DNA of 64,000 nt, taken from a virus (Duplodnaviria; Heunggongvirae; Uroviricota; Caudoviricetes). Below, in pieces: positions 6,007 through 64,000 of this stretch. Position numbers and translations under genes: made by a program. Numbering within the stretch: position 1 is the stretch's first letter; every line of letters begins with the position of its first letter. The notes below the pieces were generated by a model. That model ran no database searches and was not told the DNA's origin. It saw only the letters and a list, made by a program, of their open reading frames with translations. The DNA lies in the IMG/VR virus record IMGVR_UViG_3300021963_008171, positions 10,995 through 74,994 of that record; one strand, given 5' to 3'.

Positions 6007-8301
6007 ATGAGATTTTTATTATTTATATTATTTTCTCTAATATCATTTTTAGGGTTCGGACAGAGTGTATCTGCTCCGGACTCTAAATCGTTTATACCAT
6101 CCACAACCGGCCAAGATGGGAGTGGATTCCAATTAAGTGGATTTAGTGCAACATCTACTTTATTAGCATCAATCAGTTTAATCAATCCATCAACAAATAC
6201 TACATTTTACCTTAACGATACACGAGGATTAATTGCCGCAAGTGGATTTACTTTAACGGGTAATAAAACTCGTTTAGTGGTATTGGGAACAATGTCAGAT
6301 ATTAATACTGCATTGGTATCTTTAAAAGTTAATACAGGTTCTGTAGTTGGTAATGTTCAATTATCGGTAGCGGCAACTGTAAACCCTGTTGGATTCTTTT
6401 ACAATGGAGTTAATGGACATTTTTACAAACCCATAACCGCAACCAATGAAAGAACTTCATACACACTTGCAAGAAGTAGGTCATTGCTAACTACATTCAA
6501 AGGACAGACAGGCTATTTGGTAACAATAACATCGGCTTCCGAAGATGCATTTATATTCGCAAATGTTCCTGCAACTAATGTATGGTTTGCTGCAACAGAT
6601 GAAATAAAAGATGGAACTTGGGTAATTGATGCTGGTCCTGAAAAAGGTACTGTGATGAAAACCTCAAATGGACAAACTAATGGAAACATTCCTGGCGTAT
6701 ATAACAACTGGGCACAAGGTGAACCAAATGGTAGTAATGGTAGTGAGAACTATGCAGTGGCAAAGTGGAATGGTGCTGCAAATTGGAACGATTTATCAAA
6801 CAATTGGAGTAATCCTTATGTAATTGAATACGGAACTTGGACTAACCCTGATGATGCAACATTTACTGAATTCTATACTAATAGTGTAACTCACTCAAAT
6901 GGGGAAGTATTGAGAGCAGCATTCAATGTTGATTTCGGAACTAATGTAGATGAAACAAAATTTTCAGCAAAAGCAAATACGTATGTAAATAATTTATGGG
7001 GTACAACAACTAACACATCAAGATCAATTAGTGGATTAGGTAAAGTAGATGTTACAAATGATTTGGATACTGTAAAGATTCAAAACGGAGGATACGTGGG
7101 TTCAATAGTAGGAGGGCAGGTAGAATGGTCTTATGTTAATTTTTATAACGGAGCAACCACACTTTACATTGACATGAGAAAGTTTGGTGCGATCGGTGCA
7201 AATTCTGTATCACACATTACACTCTTAGATGTATACAGTGGACCTGTTACCTTTTTAGGAAATGATGCAACCTGGGCAAGATATACGATACCCTCGACCC
7301 TTCCGAAAGTAACAAACGGAACGTCAACAAATTCACAATATATTCGCAACGCTGGATACGGAGATTATGCATTTATGTGTGAGATTTCATTTGAACTTAA
7401 TCGTGAATATAAACAACACGGAATAGAATTATCGTATACTAATCAAACAGATTTGAACACCCTGTATAATAGTATCGTTACTGTATCTGATGTGTTTATA
7501 GCATTTAAAGAATTATCAAATGGCGGGATATTTGGGGATCAAAGCGGATTGGAATTTACCAACGGTATTCAATTTATGAACGCAGATGTGGACGGTAATG
7601 GATTATTCAATGAATCCGACACGTATAAATTATTACAGCACCTAACTGGAGTTCAGCCATTAACACAAAATCCATTATTAACATTCTTGATGAAGCTTTA
7701 TAGCAAATCTGATTATGATGCAATTACAAAATCAAATTGGAACACAAGATTTAATTCTACGAGAAGTCTATTTCCATTTAGTTTAAATACGGGTACCCTT
7801 AATAACACATACAATGTGAACGTAACCTGGATAGGTGACGTAAACCTTTCTCATTCGGCACAACAAACTGCAAGCGGTGTTGCAACCAATTCATATAGAA
7901 GCATGAGCCTAATGACTAATACAACCACTAATGAAATAAATGCATCAATCATGGGTGAAAATGTTGGAGGTAAGGTTATAGTAACGATATCAGTAGACCC
8001 ATTACAGCAAGAATTAGTAGGAACCCAATTCCAGTTGAATTATGATAATACCTCGTTGGAATTTCAAAAAGTAGATTTTATAACAAAAGGTAATCCAACA
8101 AATTTTGGAACAGATAAAGGATCTTATATCACATTGGGATCATTAATCACTGATGGATCAACAATATTAGACAAAACAACAGAATATAAAATAACATTCG
8201 TACCAAAAATTGGATTAACTGGAACATTAGGGTTAACTTCTGTTTCAGCAACAGATGCTGTTAATAAAGCAGGAACTCAATTAAAAGTAAAATTAAACTA
8301 A
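6007..8301 (+). CDS. secreted multidomain protein: C-type lectin, dockerin-like EF-hand repeat and cohesin-like C-terminus
   Basis: Signal peptide MRFLLFILFSLISFLGFGQ. C-type lectin signature GHFY...YLVTITSASEDAFI...WFAATD...WAQGEPNGSNGSENYAV...WNDLS...YVIEYG. Dockerin-like MNADVDGNGLFNESDTYKLLQHLTG. C-terminus FQLNYDNTSLEFQKVDF...YKITFVPK. Confidence 0.75.
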   Translation: MRFLLFILFSLISFLGFGQSVSAPDSKSFIPSTTGQDGSGFQLSGFSATSTLLASISLINPSTNTTFYLNDTRGLIAASGFTLTGNKTRLVVLGTMSDINTALVSLKVNTGSVVGNVQLSVAATVNPVGFFYNGVNGHFYKPITATNERTSYTLARSRSLLTTFKGQTGYLVTITSASEDAFIFANVPATNVWFAATDEIKDGTWVIDAGPEKGTVMKTSNGQTNGNIPGVYNNWAQGEPNGSNGSENYAVAKWNGAANWNDLSNNWSNPYVIEYGTWTNPDDATFTEFYTNSVTHSNGEVLRAAFNVDFGTNVDETKFSAKANTYVNNLWGTTTNTSRSISGLGKVDVTNDLDTVKIQNGGYVGSIVGGQVEWSYVNFYNGATTLYIDMRKFGAIGANSVSHITLLDVYSGPVTFLGNDATWARYTIPSTLPKVTNGTSTNSQYIRNAGYGDYAFMCEISFELNREYKQHGIELSYTNQTDLNTLYNSIVTVSDVFIAFKELSNGGIFGDQSGLEFTNGIQFMNADVDGNGLFNESDTYKLLQHLTGVQPLTQNPLLTFLMKLYSKSDYDAITKSNWNTRFNSTRSLFPFSLNTGTLNNTYNVNVTWIGDVNLSHSAQQTASGVATNSYRSMSLMTNTTTNEINASIMGENVGGKVIVTISVDPLQQELVGTQFQLNYDNTSLEFQKVDFITKGNPTNFGTDKGSYITLGSLITDGSTILDKTTEYKITFVPKIGLTGTLGLTSVSATDAVNKAGTQLKVKLN

Positions 8302-9194
8302 TGAAAAGGATAACAATCATATTAATCTTACTTTTCATAGGGGTTTATTCTAAAGCACAAATTGTAAAACCTGATACGTTACAGCTTTCACCTAAAGAAT
8401 TGTTTGGTGAGAGTGATGATTGGAATGATATAGGTATATTACAATCCTATATTGATTTTTCAAAAGACGTTCTTTCATCCTCAAATCTATCTGTTGGTAT
8501 AATCGGAAAACAGGTGTCAAGTACTTTAAATCTGGGATACAGTAAATGGTCTAATAATGGAGTATGGGGACACTCATTTTCCACATCAATAAATCCGATA
8601 TGGAATTATTATGGTGTTGGTTATGGATTTAGTAGAAATACTGATAAGAGAACAACAACATTACAAACATTCTATTCAACTGATTTTGATTTTCAAAAAG
8701 ATATCAGTATTTCATTTATAGATGTTTTCAGGACAAAAAAGTTTGGGACATTTGGGTATAGCTTAATTGCATCAAAAACATTTTGGGGAACATATGAAGG
8801 AGCATGGGAAGGAAAATACACAGTTGATGCGAATGGTAATTTTTTGGATTTGATTTACCCACAAATGCCGGCATCATCCGAAATGATTTATAAAGGAATG
8901 TTAATGTACACATATACAATCAAAACAAAGAGAGTTAATATATCCCCACAAATATTTGCTATGAGCGACATCTATAAAGATTTTAAGGATGGTACCTCTT
9001 CGGATTTAGCATATCTTGATGATTTCAATTTGGATTTATATTATGGTACATCATTCGATTGGAAAATAACTAAAAGATTTGTTTTAAACACTAATATTAG
9101 ATTCAACAAAACGTGGGATAAATTAAGCGAGTCTGTTGGATATAAAAAAAGTAATCCAATAATGTTTATGATAGGAACAAACTTTCAATTTTAA
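8301..9194 (+). CDS. outer-membrane beta-barrel-like protein (paralogous to the C-terminus of 10224..11669)
   Basis: Signal peptide MKRITIILILLFIGVYSKAQ. Alternating aromatic/Gly-rich strands with a terminal ...MIGTNFQF. Shared blocks: ISPQIFAMS/IAPQVFVTS and GTSFDWKITKRFVLNTNIRFN/GFSYDYKLTGRFGLNLNYRFS. Confidence 0.6.
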   Translation: MKRITIILILLFIGVYSKAQIVKPDTLQLSPKELFGESDDWNDIGILQSYIDFSKDVLSSSNLSVGIIGKQVSSTLNLGYSKWSNNGVWGHSFSTSINPIWNYYGVGYGFSRNTDKRTTTLQTFYSTDFDFQKDISISFIDVFRTKKFGTFGYSLIASKTFWGTYEGAWEGKYTVDANGNFLDLIYPQMPASSEMIYKGMLMYTYTIKTKRVNISPQIFAMSDIYKDFKDGTSSDLAYLDDFNLDLYYGTSFDWKITKRFVLNTNIRFNKTWDKLSESVGYKKSNPIMFMIGTNFQF

Positions 9195-9197
9195 AAG

Positions 9198-9455
9198 ATG
9201 AAAAAAATATTAATTATATCATTTTTATTCTTAACAATATCATCTTGTACTAGTTACAAGATTAGGGTAATACAGTATGATGGAACTGGATATTCGTTGT
9301 ATTTGCCAATGAAAAAACACGGATTGGATAAATGGTACGATGATAACATTGTGTACTATTCTGAAGAGATGGCAAGGTTTAAAATTAAAAAATGGAAGAG
9401 TGAGGAATATCATTCGGATCCGTGGAAAAAACCAAAATACATTAAAATAAATTAA
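9198..9455 (+). CDS. small lipoprotein
   Basis: MKKILIISFLFLTISSC contains a lipobox Cys. 85 codons. Confidence 0.6.
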   Translation: MKKILIISFLFLTISSCTSYKIRVIQYDGTGYSLYLPMKKHGLDKWYDDNIVYYSEEMARFKIKKWKSEEYHSDPWKKPKYIKIN

Positions 9456-9799
9456 TGAAAAAGATATTATTCATATTTCTGATTTTACTGTATGGATGTA
9501 CTAAACCGGAGTTACCAACACCGGCACCGCCAGTCGAAAAAATATTTGATGTTGGGGAGAGTAGTGTTACCAATGGACAATCTTTGTATTTTGATTTACC
9601 ATCACCTGGAGTTTATATTTTATCCTTAATTGATAAAGAGACAAACCAAGTAATAAGCAGAGAAAAATTCGTGGGTCAGATTGGGGAGAATTCAAGAAAG
9701 ATCTATACCAATTCTATAAAATCACAAACGCTATATCTATTGTTGTCAGATTCTTCTAAAAACGAGATGAAAAGAACAACTATATTAATAAGAAAATAA
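9455..9799 (+). CDS. small lipoprotein, beta-sandwich-like (T9SS-CTD-like pattern)
   Basis: MKKILFIFLILLYGC lipobox. The stretch GQSLYFDLPSPGVYILSLIDKETNQVIS...LYLLL resembles the Por-secretion-tail / Ig-like pattern. Confidence 0.55.
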   Translation: MKKILFIFLILLYGCTKPELPTPAPPVEKIFDVGESSVTNGQSLYFDLPSPGVYILSLIDKETNQVISREKFVGQIGENSRKIYTNSIKSQTLYLLLSDSSKNEMKRTTILIRK

Positions 9800-9810
9800 A
9801 ATAAAAAGAA

Positions 9811-10185
9811 ATGAAAAAATCACTAATCTTCTCAATCTGCGTTATTCTATTTGCAGGATGTACAAAAGACGACATGCTAATTCCTATGCAGGAACAAATT
9901 AAACCAGAGCTTGCTATTCAAAACAGCGTGGGTATTAAATTAGAAACCCCATTTGTTTCCAAGGAAGTTTCAATGAACGTAAAATTGGAAAAGGAAGGTA
10001 CTGTAGTTATTAAAATAACTGACATATCAAATAGAGTTGTATCTAAGGAACAGGTTAATGTAAAGGCTGGAGATAATCTATTGAAAGTTTATACCTCTGC
10101 TTTACCATCTTCTTCATATAGAATTGGTATCTACGACTCTAGTAACAATCTTCTAGGAATAACAGACTTTAATAAGATAAACTAA
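9811..10185 (+). CDS. small lipoprotein, beta-sandwich-like (T9SS-CTD-like pattern)
   Basis: MKKSLIFSICVILFAGC lipobox. The stretch VVIKITDISNRVVSKEQVNVKAGDNLLKVYTSALPSSSYRIGIYD matches the xIxIxDxxGRxV...G.N...L..G.Y pattern. Confidence 0.55.
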   Translation: MKKSLIFSICVILFAGCTKDDMLIPMQEQIKPELAIQNSVGIKLETPFVSKEVSMNVKLEKEGTVVIKITDISNRVVSKEQVNVKAGDNLLKVYTSALPSSSYRIGIYDSSNNLLGITDFNKIN

Positions 10186-10223
10186 AAGATTATCTTAAAA
10201 TATTTGAGGCGGAGAAAAATTGA

Positions 10224-11669
10224 ATGAAGAAATTATTATTGTTCCTTTTATTGGTAGTAGCATCCTTTGCTGCTAGTGCACAGACCTTCACCCAGACCTA
10301 TGTGGATAAATGTACTGGGGAGCTCAAAGTTGTGGTGTCTGCTCCTATGCCCAATGGTGGAGTAATGATTTCTTTTTATAATCAAATGAAGATATTCACG
10401 AATGCGCAGGTCAATGACGGAACGGTTCAAAAATGGCTGAATCAAGTTTATACTGATTATAATACAAGACCTTGTCCAGTAAGTACTGTTGCTGTACAAA
10501 CAGTTCAACAAACTGTTGCACAAGCGGCATCAGCTGCTGCATCTGCTGCAGCTTCTTCCGCAGCAAGTAATGCAGCTTCATCTGCAGCTAGTTCTTCGGC
10601 ATCAGCTGCTGCTTCATCGTCTGCAAGTAGCGCTGCAAGTTCTTCTGCATCATCTTCTGCTAGTGCTTCTGCTGGTTCATCCGCGGGTGCTTCTGCTGGT
10701 TCATCAGGAGGTCCTTCTTCTCAAAGCTCAGGCGGATCTTCAGGTTCATCTAGCTCTAACGGGGAAAGTAAAAGTAGTGGATCATCATCAGGAGAATCAA
10801 AATCTGAAAGTAAAGCTGAATCAAAATCTGAAAGTAAATCAGAATCAAAATCCGAAAGTAAAAGTGAGGAGAAGAAAGAGGAAAGCAAATCTGAGAGTAA
10901 AAAAGAGGAGAAGAAAGAGGAGAATAAAAAAGAAGAAGAGAAGAAAAAAGAGGAGGAGAAAAAGAAAGAAGAGGAAAAGAAGAAGAAAGAAGAGGAAAAG
11001 AAGAAGAAACAATCCGTTAGTAATCCCACACTAGTTGCTTCCGATCTTGCAGTAACACAAGGAAATGACGGTAGATATTCTGCTATGATATCAACAGGTA
11101 TAAGCAAATCTTCCATGACGGGAACGGAAAGTTGGGGATTAACATCCATGATATGGACAACATTTGATCAATTTGCTTTGAATGGCGGATACACTAAAAT
11201 GAATTTCGAAAAAGGCAAATTAAAGAACATAGATTCATATTCTATGACATTAGCATACCTTCAGGGAAATATCATGATTATGCAGGGTTATACGCACATT
11301 AAACCGGATCCTAAGATAGGTACTTATGGATTTAACGTAGGAGTTGTTAGCTTATTATTAAAGGATGGAAATAAGTATACCTATTCTGCTTCTTTTTCGT
11401 CCATCGGATTTTGGACAAAGATTTATCAGGTAAATAAAAAAACATCAATAGCTCCTCAGGTTTTCGTAACAAGCTCCCCGATATCATGGAATCCAAACAC
11501 CAATCAAACCTTGGTAAACAGACATTACGGATATATGACAGGGTTTTCGTATGACTACAAATTAACTGGAAGATTCGGGCTTAATCTAAATTATAGATTT
11601 TCTGGATCAACCCAAGCGGGAACACCGATATTGCATAATTTTATGATAGGATCGAGGATTATGCTGTAG
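10224..11669 (+). CDS. secreted protein: N-terminal domain, long Ser/Ala to Ser/Gly to Ser/Glu/Lys to Glu/Lys low-complexity linker, and C-terminal beta-barrel-like domain
   Basis: Signal peptide MKKLLLFLLLVVASFAASAQ. The linker spans roughly 160 residues. The C-terminal ~200 aa are paralogous to 8301..9194 and end ...FMIGSRIML. Confidence 0.65.
   Translation: MKKLLLFLLLVVASFAASAQTFTQTYVDKCTGELKVVVSAPMPNGGVMISFYNQMKIFTNAQVNDGTVQKWLNQVYTDYNTRPCPVSTVAVQTVQQTVAQAASAAASAAASSAASNAASSAASSSASAAASSSASSAASSSASSSASASAGSSAGASAGSSGGPSSQSSGGSSGSSSSNGESKSSGSSSGESKSESKAESKSESKSESKSESKSEEKKEESKSESKKEEKKEENKKEEEKKKEEEKKKEEEKKKKEEEKKKKQSVSNPTLVASDLAVTQGNDGRYSAMISTGISKSSMTGTESWGLTSMIWTTFDQFALNGGYTKMNFEKGKLKNIDSYSMTLAYLQGNIMIMQGYTHIKPDPKIGTYGFNVGVVSLLLKDGNKYTYSASFSSIGFWTKIYQVNKKTSIAPQVFVTSSPISWNPNTNQTLVNRHYGYMTGFSYDYKLTGRFGLNLNYRFSGSTQAGTPILHNFMIGSRIML
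10523..11010 (+). repeat. coding low-complexity tract including a 3 x 24-nt tandem repeat (10794-10865)
   Basis: GAATCAAAATCTGAAAGTAAAGCT, GAATCAAAATCTGAAAGTAAATCA and GAATCAAAATCCGAAAGTAAAAGT encode ESKSESK(A/S). GCN/TCN runs lie upstream and GAA/GAG/AAA/AAG runs downstream. Confidence 0.85.
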
Positions 11670-11675
11670 AAAAAA

Positions 11676-11707
11676 GATATATAAAGTTGAAAAAATCCTC
11701 ATTCCGT
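11676..11707 (+). promoter_or_regulatory. leader box copy 2: GATATATAAAGTTGAAAAAATCCTCATTCCGT
   Basis: Matches 3680-3710 except for one substitution and one inserted T. It begins 7 nt after the stop of 10224..11669 and heads a 168-nt leader before ATG 11844. Confidence 0.5.
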
Positions 11708-11843
11708 TAGCAAGAAATCTACATTTCTTCGTACGTCTTTTCAAAACTAGCTGGCTTATTGCCGGAAACCTGTATGAAAGGCGGGTCTCAACTTTGAGTA
11801 TTTTTTCTAGGTATTAAAAAAAACCGAATATAAAATAAACAAA

Positions 11844-12158
11844 ATGAGCGAAGAAACAGAAAACGACGGAACCTGGTCAGGTTTAAAAAAGACAATCGTA
11901 GGAGTACTTGGTACAGTAGTAACTGCAGGTGGAGTATTTTTAACTACACTATTAGGAGGCGGAGATAAAGACGAAGCCCCAGCACCAGCAGCCCCAGTAA
12001 TTAACATCACAAACTCAAATCAACAGCAACAAGCAGCAGGAAAAACCGTGATTATTCAGGGTGGCAACAATGGCGGAACAGGCAAACCAGCAGCTCCAGC
12101 TCCAGCACCTAAGAAGAAAGAAGGTGATGAGTTTAAAGAGGAAGCACCAAAATGGTAA
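11844..12158 (+). CDS. single-pass membrane protein with Pro/Ala-rich segments
   Basis: TM helix IVGVLGTVVTAGGVFLTTLLGGG, then APAPAAP ... KPAAPAPAPKKK. Confidence 0.55.
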   Translation: MSEETENDGTWSGLKKTIVGVLGTVVTAGGVFLTTLLGGGDKDEAPAPAAPVINITNSNQQQQAAGKTVIIQGGNNGGTGKPAAPAPAPKKKEGDEFKEEAPKW

Positions 12159-12334
12159 ATATGGAACAAGGGCTAAGTTTCATAGCAGTAGTTGCAGTAT
12201 GTTCAATAGCTATGTTTGTATTTAATTCACCAATAATGTTTTTAACATCTTTTATAATTGGATGTAGCTACTTGGTATTAAGAGGGAGAAAAAAGGGGTG
12301 GAGATTACCCAAAGATATAAAAAATACACATTAA
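12152..12334 (+). CDS. small two-helix membrane protein
   Basis: LSFIAVVAVCSIAMFVF and IMFLTSFIIGCSYLVL. The start is either ATG 12152 or ATG 12161. Confidence 0.45.
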   Translation: MVNMEQGLSFIAVVAVCSIAMFVFNSPIMFLTSFIIGCSYLVLRGRKKGWRLPKDIKNTH

Positions 12335-12348
12335 TAGAATAAATTAAA

Positions 12349-12918
12349 ATGGCAGAAAAAAATCAACAACCAAGTGGATTTAAAGACCTATTAAACTCGA
12401 TGATGACCCGCAGATGGTACATCACCGCATTAGTGTTAGGCGGATTTATGCTAATACTAGCAGGAATGTTTGCAGCTATAGGAATAGGAACCAAAATGGC
12501 AGGAGAATGGAAAGAGCTTCTTCTTTTATTATTAGGGGCTTTTATTGGCTCTTATGGTAAGATTATAGACTACTGGTTCTCAGATACCGACAAAGACAAG
12601 ATGCTAGTTCAGAAGATGGACGAAGAAGATGGAACTACTTTATCTCATACTAATGACATGAAGGAAACTAACAAGCCATACGCACCAACTATCCCTGATG
12701 CATTTGTTGCAGGAGCACAAGCTGCTAGAGAATTAGCAGTGGTTGAAAATCAGCAAAATTTTGAATTGGCTAAGGATCAACAAGAGCACGAGCAGGAAAT
12801 GGAAAAGCTTGAATATGAATCTCATAGACAATGCGAGCATGAATGGGGTGATTCCGATAATGATGGAGAACTTGAATGTCAAAAATGCGGATTGTTAAAA
12901 GACAATTTCGAGGGTTAA
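12349..12918 (+). CDS. membrane protein with an acidic/coiled C-terminal domain containing a CxxC pair
   Basis: Two hydrophobic helices (WYITALVLGGFMLILAGMFAAIGIG and LLLLLLGAFIGSYG). The C-terminus reads ...HRQCEHEWGDSDNDGELECQKCG. Confidence 0.55.
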   Translation: MAEKNQQPSGFKDLLNSMMTRRWYITALVLGGFMLILAGMFAAIGIGTKMAGEWKELLLLLLGAFIGSYGKIIDYWFSDTDKDKMLVQKMDEEDGTTLSHTNDMKETNKPYAPTIPDAFVAGAQAARELAVVENQQNFELAKDQQEHEQEMEKLEYESHRQCEHEWGDSDNDGELECQKCGLLKDNFEG

Positions 12919-12942
12919 TCCCAAACAATATAAAATAATAAC

Positions 12943-13197
12943 ATGACTTTTAAAGAATGGATCATAGATCTTTTTAAAGACGAAAGAGGAGCAATTTCAG
13001 TAAAACCTGTGATTGCATTTGTTGGATCATTATTCCTTTGCGGAACGATGTTAGCTAACTCTTTCAGTGAAGAGCATTTTAAACCAGCAGCAGAATTGGT
13101 GAATGCAGTAATGGTAATAACAGCAATCGGTATGGGCGCTGATACATTAGATAAATTCACTAAGAAAGCACCTGCGGACAAGCAAGAAGAAGCTTAA
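12943..13197 (+). CDS. small two-helix membrane protein (holin-like size and topology; unproven)
   Basis: Helices VIAFVGSLFLCGTMLANSF and LVNAVMVITAIGMGA with a charged C-terminus. A hairpin follows at 13204-13225. Confidence 0.5.
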   Translation: MTFKEWIIDLFKDERGAISVKPVIAFVGSLFLCGTMLANSFSEEHFKPAAELVNAVMVITAIGMGADTLDKFTKKAPADKQEEA

Positions 13198-13203
13198 AGT
13201 TGA

Positions 13204-13225
13204 GGAACGGGTTAATCCCCGTTCC
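13204..13225 (+). terminator. terminator-like hairpin
   Basis: GGAACGGG, loop ttaatc, CCCGTTCC: a perfect 8-bp stem 7 nt after the stop. The downstream tract is only weakly T-rich. Confidence 0.4.
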
Positions 13226-13258
13226 CTTCAAATACAAATAAAACACGACTAAACCCCC

Positions 13259-13492
13259 ATGAAAAATCAATTAACAAAAGCAAGTGAATTTCTATTTCAC
13301 GTATACCTAAGACTTTGTCTGTGCTGGGTATTTTTTGCACTAGGAATACAGGTATTCTTTGTGTATTTACAAGTTAGCGATCAACAAGAAAGAATGCGTC
13401 AATATTCAAACGAATTCGAATGGAAATTTGACGGAAGATTTAAAAACAATCCAGAAAACATTATGTACGAAGGACCGACATCTGAAAAATAA
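13259..13492 (+). CDS. small membrane protein
   Basis: Hydrophobic segment FLFHVYLRLCLCWVFFALGIQVFFVYL. 77 codons. Confidence 0.45.
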   Translation: MKNQLTKASEFLFHVYLRLCLCWVFFALGIQVFFVYLQVSDQQERMRQYSNEFEWKFDGRFKNNPENIMYEGPTSEK

Positions 13493-13502
13493 TTAGGAAA
13501 GA

Positions 13503-14240
13503 ATGAAAAAGCAAATATACAACATCTCAATACTGGTCATCGTTTTTATGATTGGTTTTGTTCTGACTACAAAAGCTCAGACTATAGGTAAAACGAAAAC
13601 TGAAGATTTTAAAGCGGACTTCGAAAAGAAGAAGGATATTTCAGCATATCTTGATTACGAGGGTCCAAAGAAAAATATTCAATTGTTAAAGTGCGGAATC
13701 AATGATGAAACGTACGAGGCATATCCAGAATTAAAAGAAAAAAGAGTAGGACTTGGTGTTACTAACATCGTATTAGAATATCTTGATAACCTAAATAGAT
13801 TCGAATTCACTGAGGATAAAACCGAGATTAAAAACAGAATGGTGAAGCAATTCCAAGCATCACAATCTGGAATTTCTGAAAACAAATTAGACGGTAGAGG
13901 AAAGATAAAGCTAGCACACTATTTTGTTGAAATTGAAGTCTATGATTATTCAGTATCTGAAGACGAGTCAATTAGTCTAAAGGATGGCATCAAAGATAAT
14001 CTTGTAACAAGATTGGGTCTTCAGGTTAGATTTACTAATGCAGAGACTGGAGCAATAATAGCAGCATCTGGATTAGGTGAGGCTAAAACAACTAGGGAAT
14101 TAACTCTTGTTGCTGATGCTTCTGTTGACCCTATTAAATTCAATCAATCTACAATTAGTATTTCAACCAAAAAAGCATTGGATATAGCATGTGCAAACAT
14201 TCTAGATAAGATGATTAGAAAGGGAGTATTCCCTCAATAA
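13503..14240 (+). CDS. CsgG-family-like secretion/assembly protein
   Basis: Signal peptide MKKQIYNISILVIVFMIGFVLTTKAQ. The blocks GVTNIVLEYLDNLNRFEFTE, LAHYFVEIEVYDYS and LGLQVRFTNAETGAIIAASGLGEAKT align by eye with E. coli CsgG blocks (ATAMLVTALKDSRWF, ANIMVEGSIIGYES, IAVNLRVVNVSTGEILSSVNTSKT). Confidence 0.65.
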   Translation: MKKQIYNISILVIVFMIGFVLTTKAQTIGKTKTEDFKADFEKKKDISAYLDYEGPKKNIQLLKCGINDETYEAYPELKEKRVGLGVTNIVLEYLDNLNRFEFTEDKTEIKNRMVKQFQASQSGISENKLDGRGKIKLAHYFVEIEVYDYSVSEDESISLKDGIKDNLVTRLGLQVRFTNAETGAIIAASGLGEAKTTRELTLVADASVDPIKFNQSTISISTKKALDIACANILDKMIRKGVFPQ

Positions 14241-14293
14241 ATTTAGGTATAGCTTAAAACACTATGCTTTAGTTACACGACCTAAAGTATAAA

Positions 14294-14941
14294 ATGAACT
14301 TAAAACACGACAATTCCTCACTTAACACCATAGTAGTGGTGTTCTTTCTAGCAATCTCACAACTATTCTACAGCTGTAAGAATAACAGTTCCCCTAGGAA
14401 AGTATCCGATAAAGATAAAGCATCAATAAGTAAAGGATTGTCAGATACAACATTTATTCACGACACCGTGTATGTGGATAATTTAATTCCGTTCGAAGTT
14501 TTAAGGGACACCATAATTTATAGAGATGTCCCGGCTATCGTTGACACTGCTGCGATATTGGGAATGTATAATGTTAAAAAAGTTAAAATCGATACACTCA
14601 AGCTTGATTATGGCTATATCACAGTGGTTGATACTGTTTCTGGAGGTAATATCCTATCTAGAAAATATTTCTCTAAGATTAAGGTACCTGTTAAAGAGAG
14701 GATCGAAAAGATAAAAGAAGAACCTAGGGGTAATCTGTATTTAGGCCTGAATGGGGGTTTAGATAAACCTAACTATGTTTACTCCCTGGGGACTTCTTTT
14801 CTCTATAAAACACCTAAGGATAAAATTTACGAACTTGGTATAGGGGTTTGGAATATGACATCTAATGGAATAGATGGCCAATTCATTCCGTATGTAAAAG
14901 GAGGGGTTTACTGGAAGGTTAACCTCAAAGGGAAGAAATAA
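14294..14941 (+). CDS. lipoprotein with a beta-rich C-terminal domain
   Basis: TIVVVFFLAISQLFYSC lipobox-like signal. The C-terminus is Gly/aromatic-rich (GNLYLGLNGGLDKPNYVYSLGTSFLYK...GGVYWKVNL). Confidence 0.55.
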   Translation: MNLKHDNSSLNTIVVVFFLAISQLFYSCKNNSSPRKVSDKDKASISKGLSDTTFIHDTVYVDNLIPFEVLRDTIIYRDVPAIVDTAAILGMYNVKKVKIDTLKLDYGYITVVDTVSGGNILSRKYFSKIKVPVKERIEKIKEEPRGNLYLGLNGGLDKPNYVYSLGTSFLYKTPKDKIYELGIGVWNMTSNGIDGQFIPYVKGGVYWKVNLKGKK

Positions 14942-25682: not shown

Positions 25683-25725
25683 GATAGATACAAGAATCAA
25701 TCAGATAAAATATAAATTTAGAAAA

Positions 25726-26315: not shown

Positions 26316-26351
26316 TTTTTCAAAACATTTTTATTTCTCAGGAAACTATCA

Positions 26352-26370
26352 TAGATTTGCATATATAAAC
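26352..26370 (+). promoter_or_regulatory. TAGATTTG (-7 box) immediately followed by CATATATAAAC
   Basis: Both promoter-like motifs are juxtaposed at the 5' edge of the ORF-free region. Confidence 0.5.
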
Positions 26371-53825: not shown

Positions 53826-55234
53826 ATGCCTACGTCTACCCAAGTTATATTCTTGTCTTTTTTTATTCCGTGTTCTGTGAATTTGATTCTGAATACACCA
53901 TCATCTTCATCTGATGATGACATACTATAATTTTTAGAAACCTCGTTGATGAACCTCAATTGATTCCATCTAGTTGCCTGATCCTTCCATTTATTTTCAA
54001 AGAATCCATTCTCACTGTGACCAAGTGCTTTGAATAATCCCTTCCTCCTTCTGGGAATTTCTAATTTTTTGTGTGATGGAATTTCCATTTCCCTGATATC
54101 ACAATTGAATATTCTAGCATGATTCCTATTTCCGGATTGATCTACCAATCGATAATTTCTGATACTTTTTGCATTGTAAAGAAGATGTAGCTCGTTAGAA
54201 ATTTTATATTTTCTAAATTTTTGATTTTTAGTTAATTCCTCTACCTCTTCTTTGGATAAACATTTCTTGACAACTGCAAATGAGTCTATCAGTCCTTTAA
54301 ACATATTAGGATCTCCTATTCTGTGTGGATTTCCTGCTCCTAGATAAAACAAATCAACATCATCATATGACCTTAAAGATTCGAATCCCTCAGATTCTCC
54401 TATTAATTCACCATCCTGATAGAATTTGATTTTCTTTTCTCCTAATGATATTGTCACACAAACTGTAGTTTGATAGTTTGTTTTAATATCGGAATTCACG
54501 TAAAAAGCTTTTTCTTCCTTATCGAATGTTACAAAATTGTATCTCTGAAAAGAATTATAAGAAACTGCAGTGTCATATCCAGGTAAGCTAAATGCTGTAA
54601 AAACGTCCGAATCCTTTGTGTGATCACACTCGATATCTTCTGGATAAAAAGAAACAAAAAATGTTAGATCCGTATCAAGATCAAAATTGTTTTTAATCTC
54701 GACGTAAGAATTAATTCCATTAAAATATAATGCTGTGAATTTCTTTTTTGAATTCTTAACAAATCCAAAATCAGTCTCACATCCGTTTCTAACGCATCTT
54801 AATAATAGATCATCGTCTTCGAATCCCCATCCCCAATATCTGTTTGAGTAACCATTTATTCTTCTAAATTCATCTGCTGGAAAAATAGTAACACCACCAA
54901 AATATTGATCGAAAGTCTTTTTTGTATTTCCAGATTCTACCTCCACTATATTTTTAGCCAAGTGAACTGGGAATGGTGAATAACTATAATCAACATCAAC
55001 AGGAAGAAGATCTATGTCATGAAATACCACATAATTACATCCAAGTCTTTTTGCGTATTTGAATCCAATATTTAAGAGCATCCCACGGTTAAATTGCTTA
55101 GCATCATCTTGGTTGATAATGATAAGCTCGAATGAGATCCTTTTCTCGTCAAGATAATTTATTAGATGTCTCTTGAATGCTAGAAGATGCTCCCATCTGT
55201 GCCGATGAGGTACTATTACTCCTAGTTTATTCAT
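53822..55234 (-). CDS. GT7 (beta-1,4-galactosyltransferase-like) glycosyltransferase with an inserted LamG-like domain (paralog)
   Basis: VPHRHRWEHL, FNRGMLLN, HDIDLLPV and YFGGVTIFPADEFRRINGYSNRYWGWGFEDDDLLLR. The insert contains FKGLIDSFAVVKKCLSKEEVEEL. The tail ...NITWVDVGI compares with B4GalT1 ...TQITVDIG. Confidence 0.8.
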   Translation of the reverse strand: MNKLGVIVPHRHRWEHLLAFKRHLINYLDEKRISFELIIINQDDAKQFNRGMLLNIGFKYAKRLGCNYVVFHDIDLLPVDVDYSYSPFPVHLAKNIVEVESGNTKKTFDQYFGGVTIFPADEFRRINGYSNRYWGWGFEDDDLLLRCVRNGCETDFGFVKNSKKKFTALYFNGINSYVEIKNNFDLDTDLTFFVSFYPEDIECDHTKDSDVFTAFSLPGYDTAVSYNSFQRYNFVTFDKEEKAFYVNSDIKTNYQTTVCVTISLGEKKIKFYQDGELIGESEGFESLRSYDDVDLFYLGAGNPHRIGDPNMFKGLIDSFAVVKKCLSKEEVEELTKNQKFRKYKISNELHLLYNAKSIRNYRLVDQSGNRNHARIFNCDIREMEIPSHKKLEIPRRRKGLFKALGHSENGFFENKWKDQATRWNQLRFINEVSKNYSMSSSDEDDGVFRIKFTEHGIKKDKNITWVDVGI

Positions 55235-55441: not shown

Positions 55442-56287
55442 TTATATGGATGTGATAATTTTTATTAATTTTTTCCAGGAAGTGTATCCATCATAGCTGT
55501 TTACATTCTGCTCGAACATAAATGAAGGATCGCTTACGTCTAGTTTATTCTCTATTATAGCATCATACATCTTTTTATATTCGGATGAAAATGCATATTG
55601 TGAATTTACGTCCGCCACAGCCTTGATCCTTTCTAGACACGTTGAATCCCATTTGAAGTGATGAACTTGGACCGAGTATTTTTCAACTGGAGCAATTAAT
55701 GGATGATTCCACCCCTGCCATTTCCATGTTGTATAGCCATCTATCTTTGCATAGTGCTGGCCAGAAGTTATTTGAACGTGCCCCTTTACCAAACAAACTT
55801 TATTTGGGCAGGCATTACTTAGTGGATATCTAAAAAACCCAGCAAGTGGAAATTGAGAAAATATGTCTTTTCCTGATCTTATTCTGGGGAATTCACCATC
55901 TTCTCCTAATCTATCAACAAATCCACCTCTAACCAAATCCCACCCATTTTTTTCGCAGTCGTCTGCTATTCTTCTTGGATGATCGTTGTAAAGATGAAAT
56001 TCATCAATATCAGCAACCATCCACCAATCGTTAGGATGCTCATATTTACAAGAATTATAAATTGTGGTTACCTCTTCCCAGTCAAAACCCCTACTTTTTC
56101 TGGATCCGCAGATTTTTACATTCTTGTGATCCTTTATCTTTTCCTCTACCTGTTTTTTTAAATCTGGATAAAGATCCGATTCATAGACGTAAAACAAAAT
56201 TTCATCCACATTAAATTTACTATAATGTTGAATGAAGTGGGGTATAAGATTAACCCCGTGTCCTATTACTGATACGACTCTAAGCAT
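55442..56287 (-). CDS. glycosyltransferase-like protein (GT2_4/GT92-like, DxDEF motif)
   Basis: DWWMVADIDEFHLY resembles the dW....D.DEf motif of the Glyco_tranf_2_4 and GT92 families. Confidence 0.45.
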   Translation of the reverse strand: MLRVVSVIGHGVNLIPHFIQHYSKFNVDEILFYVYESDLYPDLKKQVEEKIKDHKNVKICGSRKSRGFDWEEVTTIYNSCKYEHPNDWWMVADIDEFHLYNDHPRRIADDCEKNGWDLVRGGFVDRLGEDGEFPRIRSGKDIFSQFPLAGFFRYPLSNACPNKVCLVKGHVQITSGQHYAKIDGYTTWKWQGWNHPLIAPVEKYSVQVHHFKWDSTCLERIKAVADVNSQYAFSSEYKKMYDAIIENKLDVSDPSFMFEQNVNSYDGYTSWKKLIKIITSI

Positions 56288-57011
56288 TTTTTCTTTTTAA
56301 TATAGTTATACCGCTCGAAGCTGGTTTTTCTTTTAATCTTCCATAATTGAATAAATTAAAAATTTCCCATTCATCGTTATTAAAATCCTTTACGAATTGG
56401 GAAGGACCTGAGAAATCATGGAAATCCTTTTTCTGGTCCTCTGTTACTATATAATTTTCTGAAAAGCTTGGATCTGTGTCGTGTATAGCGATTATCCCAT
56501 TCTTTTCCATTATCGTGCTGTACATATTAAAATCCTTGGAAACCCCTTCATATGAATGATCGCCGTCTATAAATAAGAAATCTATTTTGATGTCTTGCAT
56601 TATAAAGAAATCATAGAATGCTTTCTCTGATGTTTCTTTTATAAATCTTGGGTGGAAATTAGATCTATAGAATCCAGATTCGTCCATCATATTGGATTGT
56701 CCCCCGATTCCATTGCAAGGATCTACCACGTAGGTAGCTCCGATATCTCCCCAATTGTAATCGGGATTTCCTTCGAATATTCCCGAACCGTGTAAATCTA
56801 TTCTTGCCTGTGTCATTATCCTAGGAATAAAACCTCCCCCGCTCCCAATACACACGCAATTTTTAGATCTTGTAAACTGGATAAGCGAGTATATTAATAG
56901 TCCATCGCCTAGATCAGAATCCGTTGCACCATGTGACCAGCGGAAAGGTACAGGAATTTCCCCGTCGTTTGTTATCTTTTCCCTGATATAATCTAAATTC
57001 AATACCATCAT
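56280..57011 (-). CDS. class I SAM-dependent methyltransferase (Methyltransf_24/CmcI-like)
   Basis: Motif I CVCIGSGGGFIP, then FLFIDGDHSYEGVSKDFNMY...GIIAIHD. Confidence 0.6.
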   Translation of the reverse strand: MMVLNLDYIREKITNDGEIPVPFRWSHGATDSDLGDGLLIYSLIQFTRSKNCVCIGSGGGFIPRIMTQARIDLHGSGIFEGNPDYNWGDIGATYVVDPCNGIGGQSNMMDESGFYRSNFHPRFIKETSEKAFYDFFIMQDIKIDFLFIDGDHSYEGVSKDFNMYSTIMEKNGIIAIHDTDPSFSENYIVTEDQKKDFHDFSGPSQFVKDFNNDEWEIFNLFNYGRLKEKPASSGITILKRKNA

Positions 57012-60313: not shown

Positions 60314-60725
60314 GGGGATGACATGGCATTTGATCCGGATGTGGATTTTAATACTACACGCAGAGGTATGGTACTCATCCTCTTTAATCTCGGTACAAAC
60401 AAGTAAACGACGTAGAATTATCTACCATGACTTTCGAAGACGCAATGTCTTTCGTAGGTGCTGATTACGCACTAGCTGCCTAATCACTCCCGCACACATC
60501 GTGGGACTTAAAATAGAATGTGTACCAAGGTGTGATTTCTACCCAAAAAGGAATAAGGTCACGTTCAGAGGACTACCTTAATACAAGTGAACTCGACACA
60601 GTTATTGGTAACGATGTCAAAATAGGAACCATTTATTTTGTTAGGCAAGAAAAACTAGCTAAGCGTGTGAGACGTTAGTATTATTATTTCTTTCGGAGAC
60701 CGGGGTTCGAATCCCCGCATCTCCA
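60314..60725 (+). ncRNA. ssrA: tmRNA (transfer-messenger RNA)
   Basis: 5' GGGGATG pairs with CATCTCC (60718-60724), including a G3:U pair. T-arm CGGGG-TTCGAAT-CCCCG. Discriminator A at 60725. The internal tag frame ends ...GGT GCT GAT TAC GCA CTA GCT GCC TAA (GADYALAA*, stop 60481-60483). Confidence 0.9.
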
Positions 60726-60737
60726 CAAATTTTATAT

Positions 60738-60812
<75 letters not shown>

Positions 60813-60823
60813 AATTTAAAATC

Positions 60824-61207
60824 ATGTCTACCAATTGTAATATCTGCAGCGAAAAATGTTTTGGAAAGGATGGATATGATGGAAGTTGCTGTACAATAGA
60901 AGCACGTGACTATATCATAGGTCCACATAAGGACGCTAAGCAATTCATTCAATCATTATCATTAAAGCTCGGAAGAGAGATCAGCTACGAGTCAATATTC
61001 ATTGATTACGAAGAAGGAAAAAGACTTTTTCCCGACAAATCCGCATGGCAAAGCCCAACTTCATATCCTGCATTCAGAGTTGATCTAAATAATCCAAGAA
61101 ACCCCTGCATCTTTTACAATACAGTAGTTAAATCATGTATGGTATATGATATCAGACCAGAAACATGCGAGACATATCAATGCGATTATCTTAAAAGTAA
61201 TCTCTGA
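60824..61207 (+). CDS. YkgJ-family (CxxCxxCC) Cys-cluster protein
   Basis: ATG 60824 is in frame with track ORF 60752, whose 5' part overlaps the tRNA. CNICSEKCFGKDGYDGSCC...CIFYN...CMVYDIRPETCETYQC. Confidence 0.6.
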   Translation: MSTNCNICSEKCFGKDGYDGSCCTIEARDYIIGPHKDAKQFIQSLSLKLGREISYESIFIDYEEGKRLFPDKSAWQSPTSYPAFRVDLNNPRNPCIFYNTVVKSCMVYDIRPETCETYQCDYLKSNL

Positions 61208-62838: not shown

Positions 62839-64000
62839 ATGCCATTAATTTTAAGAAACGTCAAAGGTTCGGCTTTAACCATCAATGAGATGGATGATAA
62901 CCTTGAGTATTTATACAATAGGACATCGGTTGGAACATCAGGTACTGCTGGTACATCAGGTATTCAAGGATCCCAAGGATTTCAAGGTGCTCAGGGTCTA
63001 ACAGGACCTCAAGGTCTTAAAGGTGATACCGGGTCAACCGGAGCACAGGGTAGCACAGGATCAACCGGGGCTCAAGGAGCTCAGGGATTAACTGGTTCAG
63101 GAGCACAGGGAGCAGAAGGTCCAACCGGAGCACAGGGTAGCACAGGATCAACCGGAGCTCAAGGAGCTCAGGGATTAACTGGTTCAGGAGCACAGGGAGC
63201 AGAAGGTCCAACAGGGGCTCAGGGAGACATTGGATCTACAGGATCACAGGGAGCGCCGGGAACAGGAGCACAGGGAGCGCCAGGTCCAACAGGAGCACAG
63301 GGTGATACAGGTTTAACCGGAGCTCAAGGAATTAGCGGAACATCTGGCCAGTCAGGAGCACAAGGTCCAGCAGGTTCAGGAGCGCAAGGGGATCCAGGTC
63401 CAACGGGAGCTCAGGGAGACCCTGGATTAACAGGAGCACAAGGTCCAGCAGGGGCGGGAGCTCAGGGAGAGGCTGGTCCAACGGGAGCTCAGGGAGACAC
63501 TGGATTAACGGGAGCACAAGGAGCACAAGGTCCAGCAGGTTCTGGGGCACAGGGTGATTCAGGTCCAACCGGAGCTCAGGGGGACATCGGATTAACAGGA
63601 GCGCAAGGACCAGCAGGTTCTGGAGCCCAGGGTGCAGAGGGTGCTCAGGGAGCAACAGGAGCAGATGGATCCTCAATTACCTGGATGGGTGGATGGGTTA
63701 ATAATATACCATACGGAGAAAACGATGTAGTACAATATAATGGCAATTCCTACATAGGAACTGTAAATTCGATAACAGTAGGGGTAGCACCTGAAAATAA
63801 TCTAGCGGAATGGGACATATTTGTTCTTTCTGGGGAAGGAGCTCAAGGAGCAGAAGGAGCACAGGGTGCTAACGGAGCAGCTGGAGCACAGGGAGCAGCA
63901 GGTGAAGGAGCTCAGGGAGATGCCGGATCTGCAGGAGCGCAGGGAGCTAAAGGAGATGATGGGTCCGCAGGGGCACAAGGAGCAAAAGGAGACACAGGAG
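62839..64000 (+). CDS. collagen-like (Gly-X-Y) fibre protein with an embedded CBM5/12-like module; 3' end lies beyond the window
   Basis: Hand translation is open from ATG 62839 to the window edge. N-terminus MPLILRNVKGSALTINEMDDNLEYLYNRT. About 250 residues of GXY follow (GTSGTAGTSGIQGSQG...). A non-collagen block ITWMGGWVNNIPYGENDVVQYNGNSYIG...AEWDIFV lies at 63676-63828, after which GXY resumes. Confidence 0.85.
   Translation, partial: MPLILRNVKGSALTINEMDDNLEYLYNRTSVGTSGTAGTSGIQGSQGFQGAQGLTGPQGLKGDTGSTGAQGSTGSTGAQGAQGLTGSGAQGAEGPTGAQGSTGSTGAQGAQGLTGSGAQGAEGPTGAQGDIGSTGSQGAPGTGAQGAPGPTGAQGDTGLTGAQGISGTSGQSGAQGPAGSGAQGDPGPTGAQGDPGLTGAQGPAGAGAQGEAGPTGAQGDTGLTGAQGAQGPAGSGAQGDSGPTGAQGDIGLTGAQGPAGSGAQGAEGAQGATGADGSSITWMGGWVNNIPYGENDVVQYNGNSYIGTVNSITVGVAPENNLAEWDIFVLSGEGAQGAEGAQGANGAAGAQGAAGEGAQGDAGSAGAQGAKGDDGSAGAQGAKGDTG
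63034..63207 (+). repeat. 2 x 87-bp tandem duplication inside the collagen-like gene
   Basis: 63034-63120 and 63121-63207 differ at 2 positions. Each encodes 29 aa ((S/P)TGAQGSTGSTGAQGAQGLTGSGAQGAEG). Confidence 0.9.

Follow-up and report, generated by a model that had tools for sequence, protein, structure and literature searches.

A conserved multi-enzyme glycan cassette, linked to fibre genes and centred on soluble proteins in which a GT7 glycosyltransferase core is joined to a LamG domain (GT7::LamG), is widespread in uncultivated aquatic jumbo phages. We describe it here from a 64,000-nucleotide stretch of the IMG/VR virus record IMGVR_UViG_3300021963_008171 (positions 10,995 to 74,994; hereafter the window), whose lineage adds prolyl 4-hydroxylase (P4H), sulfotransferase-like, Kdo-type (3-deoxy-D-manno-octulosonic acid) and acyl/methyl tailoring genes to the cassette. 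Genes are named by the first of their window coordinates (Table 1). About 25 sugar-building or decorating genes lie in the stretch, adjoining collagen-like fibre genes; the individual domain matches stand far above chance, and an unusual density of glycan synthesis and tailoring genes in the window is supported.

A first-pass annotation had proposed an "extracellular-matrix-like" toolkit, by which virion or host surface proteins may be hydroxylated, glycosylated and sulfated. The label is a metaphor. The gene inventory is largely confirmed. The phage genome, the density of glycan genes and the synteny of fibre and cassette are borne out, whereas the pairing of collagen with P4H and the lectin as a part of the virion are not. 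That any protein is hydroxylated, glycosylated or sulfated is something we infer from the genes.

A conserved glycosyltransferase cassette linked to fibre genes

The cassette consists of a methyltransferase, a GT-A glycosyltransferase, two GT7::LamG proteins, a twitch-domain radical SAM enzyme and a GT-B-fold glycosyltransferase, and its conservation is a new observation. GT7 relatives number 226 in IMG/VR, on contigs of up to 289 kb; cassette statistics refer to the best 80 of these 226 GT7-related loci, with 10-kb flanks. The GT7::LamG pair is found in 80/80 loci, the GT-A enzyme in 79, the methyltransferase in 75, the twitch radical SAM enzyme in 73 and the GT-B family in 66, with short-chain dehydrogenases/reductases (SDRs) in 38. 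Furthermore, RmlC-like genes and genes for E1-like proteins dependent on thiamine pyrophosphate (TPP) recur inside the cassette region of many relatives.

Phage tail fibres and spikes trimerise by means of the Peptidase_S74 chaperone. In 49 of the 80 loci, a fibre open reading frame (ORF) ending in this domain is found upstream of the cassette; it shares the strand of the cassette in 48 of them, and in the relatives the methyltransferase gene often starts 1-2 kb beyond its end. The loci were then dereplicated at 95% GT7 identity, and groups were counted only if they had at least 8 kb of upstream or downstream sequence. An S74 fibre gene is present upstream in 28 of 38 such groups and downstream in 0 of 50. 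The link between cassette and fibre gene in the relatives is a strongly one-sided conserved synteny.

In 53822, a core with DxD and WGWGxEDDD motifs is followed by the LamG domain and then by a conserved C-terminal segment, and its paralogue 52383 has the same architecture. Both motifs are conserved at 90% or more across 136 distinct viral GT7 relatives. The LamG domain, of about 160 residues, starts after GT7 residue 170 or so, and the C-terminal 105 residues are conserved, with a near-invariant His. Since the profile of this segment matches the C-terminus of beta4GalT1 only weakly (E 0.14), insertion of LamG within the catalytic domain stays suggestive. The LamG prediction of the first pass proves clear for 53822 (1.5e-11) and weak for 50430, a small protein encoded between the two twitch radical SAM genes. 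A hydrophobicity scan detected no hydrophobic segment that could anchor the GT7 proteins in a membrane.

The two GT7 enzymes had been described as metazoan-type. Their GT7 membership holds (GT7N and GT7C, E 1e-18 to 1e-22), and their likeness to metazoan beta4GalTs (CAZy GT7, with the beta4GalT7 of the proteoglycan linker) amounts to an identity of about 40% across the 150 N-terminal residues, both motifs included. However, "metazoan-type" is too strong, since relatives of the GT7 catalytic domain occur in many bacterial genomes. The phage proteins also differ from the metazoan ones in the absence of a type II anchor and stem and in the LamG domain that follows the core. A tblastn search with GT7 against 50,697 cultured-phage records gave no match.

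Three radical SAM genes are present in the window, two of the twitch type (NF033640) and one of the SPASM type. Among cultured phages, a close homologue of the twitch enzyme was found in Ralstonia phage RsoM2USA alone (43% identity, full length). Every gene around that homologue (L088, 205357..230694) is annotated as hypothetical; at a distance of about 7 kb there is a gene for an SDR epimerase. As for the GT-B family, it usually occurs as a single unit of about 420 residues, often in two adjacent genes, and 42946 fuses two such units (40% identical) into a protein of 831 residues. The profile of this family found no match among PDB sequences; a fold search with 42946 returned GT-B matches, with GT10 fucosyltransferases among the neighbours.

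Fibre proteins, oxygenases and tailoring enzymes

The collagen-like protein predicted at 62839 is confirmed (742 aa, Collagen 1.7e-69), and a second gene of this kind follows it. These genes, col1 and col2, form a tandem pair with long uninterrupted Gly-X-Y (GXY) repeats (PF01391), and each product ends in a Peptidase_S74 intramolecular chaperone, a non-collagen trimerisation domain. The contig gives matches to phage tail fibre families of PHROG, and both GXY proteins are among them. The commonest triplets are GAQ, GDT and GAK, and the Y position is occupied by Thr or Ser in 26-33% of cases, by Lys in 8-11% and by Pro in 2.3-2.5%. Since Pro fills about 2.4% of the Y positions (10 of 407 triplets in col1 and col2 together), collagen-style prolyl hydroxylation and stabilisation of the GXY helices appears unlikely, as the first-pass annotation had itself cautioned in calling the repeats Pro-poor.

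Two P4H-like genes had been proposed, of which one stands as such. Judged by its sequence, 15256 truly belongs to the collagen-type P4H family; in PDB it matches, among others, the P4Hs of Bacillus anthracis (4e-29) and Chlamydomonas (2.8e-24), the human collagen P4H (C-P4H) alpha-2 (4.5e-22) and the PBCV-1 enzyme (8.6e-11). It comprises the catalytic domain alone, without the peptide-substrate-binding domain of animal C-P4Hs, and resembles monomeric or dimeric microbial and viral P4Hs, not the animal C-P4H tetramer with protein disulfide isomerase. The gene sits 47 kb from the collagen genes. Its homologues are found in 165 records of cultured phages, cyanophages for the most part, and number 38 in IMG/VR in a scan for close relatives; since they are common in cultured phages, the presence of P4H in a phage is not new. 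A P4H of 83% identity is encoded, at the same distance from the cassette, on the 244,850-bp IMG/VR contig 3300032331_003609, which is among the closest relatives of near-complete length.

The other gene, 39871, does not hold as a specific P4H: its best PDB matches are at about 1e-4, its similarity to PKHD and P4H enzymes is generic, and its NCBIfam matches fall far under the cut-offs. Lysyl hydroxylase structures do not appear among its PDB matches. The third 2-oxoglutarate (2OG) oxygenase domain that had been noticed is the C-terminal domain of 45438, whose SDR part has GDP-L-fucose synthase as its best match. The fusion of this domain to an NDP-sugar SDR, which the close relatives L008 and L039 retain, makes a sugar nucleotide a more likely substrate than a protein.

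In 5 of the 80 loci, the fibre gene and the cassette flank a P4H-like gene, which in 5/5 of these lies at most two genes downstream of a Pro-rich protein (Fisher p 2e-4). Such neighbours show polyproline stretches 16-40 residues long, or else (TP)n, (APTP)n or (APNVTPQVTP)n repeats, and not GXY. On the other hand, a Pro-rich neighbour was found in 2 of the 38 loci centred on closer homologues of 15256, which weighs against a link between P4H and Pro-rich proteins, and at lower thresholds many "Pro-rich ORFs" are antisense frames of collagen genes. The adjacency is a lead, not a finding. Pro-rich ORFs following the fibre gene were located in L031 (4569..5540), L035 (3746..4435), L047 (2031..3053), L037 (1539..3242) and L020 (1767..3416). 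In these post-fibre proteins of the relatives, the Pro-rich repeats separate small Cys-containing domains, and those of L020 and L037 end in a domain that looks like a Hint/intein type (C...VHN). The present contig has Pro-rich segments of its own, namely TPGPTPGPTPGPPAPTPAPTPAPS in a 572-aa protein after col2, and APAPAAP and PAAPAPAPKKK in a small membrane protein whose gene precedes 15256 by 3 kb.

The supply of 3'-phosphoadenosine 5'-phosphosulfate (PAPS) that had been predicted is retained in part. A short kinase resembling those for adenosine 5'-phosphosulfate (APS) is encoded by 41028, which scores under the NCBIfam curated cut-offs; no ATP sulfurylase was identified among the scanned ORFs, 40654 being a generic HxGH nucleotidyltransferase, so that a complete supply does not stand, and the host may provide APS. 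A reading of 40654 and 41028 as a split NadR-like NAD salvage pair was set aside, since 41028 matches APS kinases specifically.

Four sulfotransferase-like genes had been listed, and three remain as candidate Stf0-like paralogues. The AlphaFold2 (AF2) model (pLDDT 83) has Stf0 (1tex) as its best fold match (E 6.4e-5, TM 0.54), with P-loop kinases scoring close behind in the same comparison. RTGS and R..QAES are invariant in the paralogues, and a Walker-A lysine is missing. Pfam yields a sub-threshold match for 32745 alone, and in PDB neither the sequences nor the profiles of the paralogues found a significant match; fold comparison alone was successful. Homologues are few (7 in 5.8 billion protein clusters), and one cassette-bearing contig carries a relative about 45 kb from the cassette. 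The fourth candidate, 35343..35930 (-), is not supported: it lacks the motifs, RTGS included, has no Pfam match and is 18% identical to the paralogues.

The SGNH/GDSL hydrolase-like genes are candidate O-acyl tailoring enzymes. Within the sulfotransferase/SGNH block, 38836..39417 encodes a Zeta-toxin/AAA_33-like kinase (Pfam Zeta_toxin 7.6e-9), which may be a sugar-nucleotide kinase, since Zeta toxins phosphorylate UDP-sugars. The CMP-Kdo synthetase predicted at 21193 has KdsB families as its top NCBIfam matches throughout, below the curated cut-offs (179 vs 193 bits; 130 vs 155). Upstream of the window (L007 664..3378 and 6177..8526) lie genes for an SDR, an RmlC-like epimerase and a NodU-like carbamoyltransferase, along with truncated TPP-dependent E1 alpha- and beta-like proteins.

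Table 1. Features of the window and its immediate surroundings (window coordinates; E-values unless stated otherwise).
Feature	Position	Strand	Evidence and remarks
Methyltransferase, first cassette gene	56280..57011	-	Pfam Methyltransf_24 3.5e-11
GT-A glycosyltransferase (Glyco_tranf_2_4)	55442..56287	-	Pfam 4.8e-8
GT7 beta4-galactosyltransferase-like protein with LamG	53822..55234	-	GT7N 9.6e-20, GT7C 2e-18, Laminin_G_3 1.5e-11; PDB beta4GalT7 1.1e-28
Second GT7-like enzyme, paralogue of 53822	52383..53843	-	GT7C 4.6e-22, GT7N 1.4e-18; same cluster as 53822
Twitch-domain radical SAM (NF033640)	50989..52383	-	NCBIfam N_Twi_rSAM 2.2e-104, above cut-off
Small LamG/concanavalin-like protein	50430..51011	-	weak Laminin_G_3 0.0076, TS_C 0.0017; in 12 related loci
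Second twitch-domain radical SAM	48976..50421	-	NCBIfam N_Twi_rSAM 8e-92
Second NDP-sugar SDR, GDP-L-fucose-synthase-like	47102..48076	+	Epimerase 4.5e-41; NCBIfam Fcl 7.1e-43, below cut-off
NDP-sugar SDR fused to C-terminal 2OG-Fe(II) oxygenase	45438..47105	+	Epimerase 2.4e-38, 2OG-FeII_Oxy_3 1e-6; NCBIfam Fcl 7.7e-36, below cut-off
Tandem fusion of two GT-B-fold glycosyltransferase-like units	42946..45441	+	family without Pfam model
Radical SAM/SPASM enzyme	41695..42918	+	Pfam Radical_SAM 2.8e-10, SPASM 8.8e-4
APS-kinase-like P-loop kinase, short (145 aa)	41028..41465	-	Pfam APS_kinase 5.4e-10; PDB nearly all APS kinases, best 1.5e-7
HxGH nucleotidyltransferase, 125 aa	40654..41031	-	NCBIfam cyt_tran_rel 5e-5; NMNAT models weakly
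2OG-Fe(II) oxygenase	39871..40422	-	Pfam PF13640 3.2e-15; PDB PKHD hydroxylase 7.5e-5, P4H 2.8e-4
SGNH/GDSL hydrolase-like genes	34495..35346, 36593..37291, fragments between	-	Lipase_GDSL 6.3e-7 and 0.0021
Three Stf0-like sulfotransferase paralogues	32745..33380, 33408..33989, 33993..34523	-	AF2 model and motifs
TROVE/Ro60-like protein	26845..28470		50% identity to Bacillus phage G gp540
KdsB-like CMP-sugar (Kdo-type) cytidylyltransferase	21193..21915	+	Pfam CTP_transf_3 5.6e-28
Collagen-type prolyl 4-hydroxylase	15256..15810	+	184 aa; Pfam PF13640 6.5e-16
Exported protein with C-type-lectin-like domain (residues ~120-280)	6007..8301	+	EPN and WND motifs; signal-like N-terminus
Cluster of ~10 genes with signal-peptide/lipoprotein/transmembrane-like N-termini	3838..14941	+	hydrophobicity scan
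tmRNA, full-length	60314..60728	+	Rfam 80 bits, E 1.4e-29; directly upstream of tRNA-Met; not reported by ARAGORN
tRNA-Met	60738..60812		tRNA and tmRNA both on contig
col1, collagen-like fibre gene	62839..65067 (window end cuts at 64000)	+	742 aa, 171 GXY triplets; Pfam Collagen 1.7e-69, Peptidase_S74 1.2e-5
col2, second collagen-like fibre gene	65073..68426, just beyond window		1117 aa, 236 GXY triplets; Collagen 5.9e-101, S74 1.4e-16

Proposed target of the glycan

Our preferred reading, a tentative one, is that the cassette and the accessory enzymes glycosylate the phage's own fibres in the cytoplasm. This reading is based on three features: the synteny with fibre genes, the solubility of all the enzymes and the absence of export machinery from the 64 kb; the glycan target, the attachment sites and every chemical step are inferred. 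A hydrophobicity scan found no membrane or signal segment in the glycan enzymes, and no multi-pass membrane protein is encoded in the window. Soluble cytoplasmic enzymes would make activated unusual sugars, then assemble and decorate a glycan. The activated sugars could derive from the 6-deoxyhexose-type SDRs, the Kdo-type cytidylyltransferase and the radical SAM and 2OG steps, with the RmlC-like, TPP-dependent and carbamoyltransferase genes upstream of the window adding to the set. Assembly would be carried out by the two GT7::LamG, the GT-A and the tandem GT-B enzymes, and decoration by the methyltransferase, the SGNH acyl enzymes and the Stf0-like sulfotransferases, these last fed by the APS-kinase-like enzyme. 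The genes are coherent as to the sugar, since the Fcl-like SDRs adjoin the GT-B enzyme with GT10 fucosyltransferases among its fold neighbours. The core cassette would act on fibre proteins before their assembly; in the present phage, the targets would be the two collagen-like fibres, trimerised via their C-terminal S74 chaperone, and the abundant Thr and Ser at GXY Y positions could provide attachment sites by analogy with Bacillus BclA.

Several points weigh against fibre glycosylation. None of the evidence shows a modified protein directly, an enzyme that would initiate protein O-glycosylation was not identified, and GT7 enzymes normally extend sugars, not peptides. The KdsB-like gene fits the chemistry of lipopolysaccharide (LPS) or capsule equally well as that of a virion glycan, and export genes could be located in the part of the genome beyond the 85 kb seen. 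Conserved synteny can also mean inherited gene order instead of function. Collagen-like ORFs lie near the cassette in 9 of the 80 loci, which is about the chance level for a jumbo genome; an enrichment of collagen genes beside the cassette, not being clearly above chance, was rejected as evidence, and the link is therefore to S74 fibres generally, not to collagen. In the present contig and in L039, its closest relative, the fibre genes are of the collagen-like kind and occupy the strand opposite to the cassette, with about 5.8 kb of unrelated genes in between. Finally, the sulfotransferase block is rare and absent from the flanks of the 80 loci.

The P4H would more likely work on Pro-rich linkers than on the Pro-poor helix. 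It is conceivable, and in our estimate distinctly unlikely, that P4H hydroxylates polyPro/(T/A)P linkers, that the GT7::LamG, the GT-A and the fucosyltransferase-like GT-B enzymes add a methylated glycan containing 6-deoxyhexose or Kdo to hydroxyproline (Hyp), Thr or Ser of collagen-like or other S74 fibres, and that in this lineage the Stf0-like enzymes sulfate it, giving a coat akin to a proteoglycan or to a hydroxyproline-rich glycoprotein (HRGP).

Alternatively, the enzymes could remodel the host envelope, altering LPS, capsule or Bacteroidota O-glycoproteins during infection together with exported lectin proteins, and thus block superinfection or the re-adsorption of progeny. LPS-type genes in cyanophage genomes and seroconverting phages are precedents for such remodelling. 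The KdsB-like gene speaks for it, as do the sulfotransferase, SGNH and carbamoyl enzymes, which represent typical polysaccharide tailoring activities. So do the roughly ten proteins of the 3838..14941 cluster, among them a lectin with the EPN sugar-binding motif, which to judge from their N-termini are presumably exported into the host envelope. The C-type lectin that the first pass had seen at 6007 is upheld by its homologues: the single sequence has no Pfam match at E 0.01, whereas a homologue profile matches C-type lectins alone in PDB (E 5.7e-6), and homologues at 56-73% identity carry PF00059. EPN is invariant among these homologues, and WND is present in the query. Since the 160-aa domain contains zero cysteines, it lacks the two canonical disulfides. 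The protein is not evidently a virion component and probably is none.

However, a flippase, a polymerase, an initiating phosphoglycosyltransferase, an ABC exporter or a Gtr/Oac-type membrane enzyme is absent from the 64-kb window and from the Pfam-annotated genes of the remaining contig. Every glycan enzyme is soluble, and the cassette is positioned with the fibre genes, not with the exported cluster 40 kb off. We consider this alternative somewhat unlikely. Other products of the exported cluster may be recorded here: 4317 and 6007 are large paralogous proteins with C-terminal regions that look dockerin-like or cohesin-like by eye, two proteins look like beta-barrels with an aromatic last residue, and 10224 has a long Ser/Ala tract followed by low-complexity (ESK)n and (EEKKK)n runs. 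None of the proteins of the cluster has a Pfam or PHROG match.

It could also be that the components share no target, the region being a hyperplastic one of unrelated auxiliary genes with separate substrates and the "toolkit" a pattern supplied by the reader. The distributions are indeed unlike (GT7, 226 in IMG/VR; P4H, 38 in IMG/VR and 165 in cultured records; sulfotransferase, 7), P4H, sulfotransferases, KdsB and lectin are for the most part missing around the cassette in the 80 relatives, and the components occupy differing strands and blocks interspersed with unrelated genes. On the other hand, the core cassette is a tightly conserved multi-gene unit, the sugar-nucleotide, glycosyltransferase and tailoring genes are chemically coherent, and the closest relative keeps its P4H at the same distance of 39 kb from the cassette. 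We regard a lack of any common target as quite unlikely. Hypermodification of phage bases against restriction, by the glycosyltransferases, radical SAM and sugar-nucleotide genes, is very improbable. Phage glycosyltransferases are known to glycosylate DNA, according to work cited in PMC12619734, but the GT-B fold matches obtained here are generic, the window showed neither a hydroxymethylase nor a dNMP kinase nor any further gene for base modification, the LamG-bearing GT7 proteins, the sulfotransferases and the SGNH enzymes are ill-suited to DNA chemistry, and the cassette is tied to fibre genes, not to replication genes.

Phage identity, known systems and significance

The window is part of an 85,545-bp metagenome contig (ENA ERZ27296343 k141_1586432; window position = 72,525 minus contig position), near-identical pieces of which occur in two further sequencing runs. 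The contig has about 35% GC and tightly packed, short genes. It probably stems from an uncultivated tailed jumbo phage infecting Bacteroidota/Flavobacteriia, whose complete genome, of which 85 kb is seen, would probably exceed 200 kb. The viral assignment is based on the fibre genes and their PHROG matches, on RNA and S21 features typical of huge phages and on more than 200 IMG/VR relatives. Since megablast of 48 kb of the window against the 50,697 phage records gave no match, the phage has no close cultured relative. That the DNA is instead an island of a bacterial chromosome, or a piece of a giant virus of eukaryotes, is scarcely tenable. In its favour, the 85 kb contain no capsid, portal, terminase (TerL), MCP or PolB gene, some relatives have been assigned to bacterial metagenome-assembled genomes (MAGs), and giant viruses of eukaryotes are known for GT7, P4H, collagen-like proteins and Kdo genes. 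Against it, S74 fibres with tail-fibre PHROG matches occur on the contig and in 49 related loci, the genes are short and tightly packed, tmRNA, tRNA and S21 are found as in huge phages, the signal peptides are of the bacterial Sec/lipoprotein type, and the MAG contigs resemble phage genomes.

Contigs with full-length GT7::LamG are binned with Flavobacteriaceae/Flavobacteriales MAGs, and also with Pelagibacterales, Anaeromicropila and Spirochaetales MAGs. These "bacterial" contigs (L136, L137 and L138-L142) look like mis-binned jumbo-phage genomes; L137, for instance, is a single contig of 248,233 bp (CBFHJJ010000001.1) in a Flavobacteriaceae bin. A further clue to the host comes from Bacteroidota-type signal peptides and a Fib_succ_major (FISUMP) domain, typical of Fibrobacter/Bacteroidota, in the protein encoded by 28512..29192. 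Nearby, 29894..30403 encodes a small exported protein in which an HExxH metalloprotease-like motif was recognised by eye.

The gene for ribosomal protein S21 is located just upstream of the window on the contig. A called ORF of 151 aa, 60752..61207, begins within the tRNA-Met gene, and its first 20 or so residues (VARWAHNPKVAGSNPVPAT) resemble a translated tRNA; its real start is probably the Met at MSTNCNICSEKC. The TROVE/Ro60-like protein has relatives in 87 phage records, crAss-like phages included. The 1.1 kb upstream of its gene (25700..26845) contains solely ORFs of less than 100 aa, and no Y-RNA family was detected at the Rfam gathering threshold.

By published description, the moraphages are aquatic, uncultivated jumbo phages of Bacteroidota, of up to 307 kb and with predicted Flavobacteriia hosts, and four putative glycosyltransferases are among their core orthogroups (PMC12619734). 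The present phage resembles them in being aquatic and uncultivated, in its glycosyltransferases and in its probable Flavobacteriia host, to which this resemblance is another clue; the paper makes no mention of collagen-like fibres, GT7, radical SAM, P4H or sulfotransferases (PMC12619734).

A literature search on phage collagen combined with P4H and glycosyltransferases, and on jumbo-phage sulfotransferases, found nothing relevant. Outside phages, Mimivirus and Megavirus glycosylate their fibrils, with a collagen-modifying L230 enzyme. The likeness lies in virus-encoded nucleotide-sugar pathways, soluble glycosyltransferases, collagen-like proteins and 2OG oxygenases, and in glycans made without the host secretory machinery. 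In contrast, the host here is bacterial, the fibres carry S74 chaperones, GT7::LamG and sulfotransferases are present, and the lysyl hydroxylase/glycosyltransferase fusion of L230 was not detected in our contig, though Lys does occur at Y positions (8-11%).

For the P4H, the nearest precedent is the enzyme of PBCV-1, which acts on viral (Pro-Ala-Pro-Lys)n repeats, along with algal and plant HRGPs; we take it as a lead. Here, 15256 matches the PBCV-1 and Chlamydomonas P4H structures, P4H-like genes of relatives adjoin polyPro, (TP)n or (APTP)n proteins, and the contig holds the TPGPTPGPTPGPPAPTPAPTPAPS and PAAPAPAPKKK segments. The differences are a bacterial virus, a Pro-rich association confined to 5/80 cassette and 2/38 P4H loci, and the lack of an identified Hyp-specific arabinosyl- or galactosyltransferase in the contig. 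The exosporium protein BclA of B. anthracis is a GXT-rich collagen-like fibre bearing Thr-linked rhamnose and anthrose, methylated 6-deoxy sugars. To this may be compared the B. anthracis P4H as best PDB match of 15256 and the RmlC-like, Fcl-like and methyltransferase genes of the contig; however, BclA has GPT triplets and C1q-like trimerisation, as against GAQ/GDT/GAK and S74 here, and the glycosyltransferases are unrelated, as far as tested. Among phages, virion glycosylation of mycobacteriophages, as PMC12619734 relates it from Freeman et al. 2023, involves one or two glycosyltransferases and the C-termini of capsid and tail-tube proteins. Phage-encoded glycosyltransferases thereby modify virion proteins in the cytoplasm (PMC12619734), as is proposed here. 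The present system differs in its cassette of at least 7 genes with about 15 more sugar and tailoring genes, and in its linkage to fibre genes.

Virion-fibre glycosylation by virus enzymes is established in giant eukaryotic viruses and, in a simple form, in mycobacteriophages. The present genes include untapped enzymes, namely GT7 proteins that are soluble and carry a lectin domain of their own, radical SAM sugar enzymes of the twitch type and Stf0-like sulfotransferases of small size. They also suggest, in concrete and testable form, what the substrate may be of the P4H-like oxygenases of phages, which have long lacked an explanation. If a proteoglycan- or HRGP-like coat were indeed made, it would constitute a bacterial-virus counterpart of eukaryotic extracellular-matrix biosynthesis that is wholly cytoplasmic. 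If the link to fibres holds, complex virion glycans would be common among environmental phages, the cassette being found in hundreds of uncultivated aquatic jumbo phages, and could, in turn, affect host recognition, sticking to marine and freshwater polysaccharide gels, and evasion of grazing or immunity.

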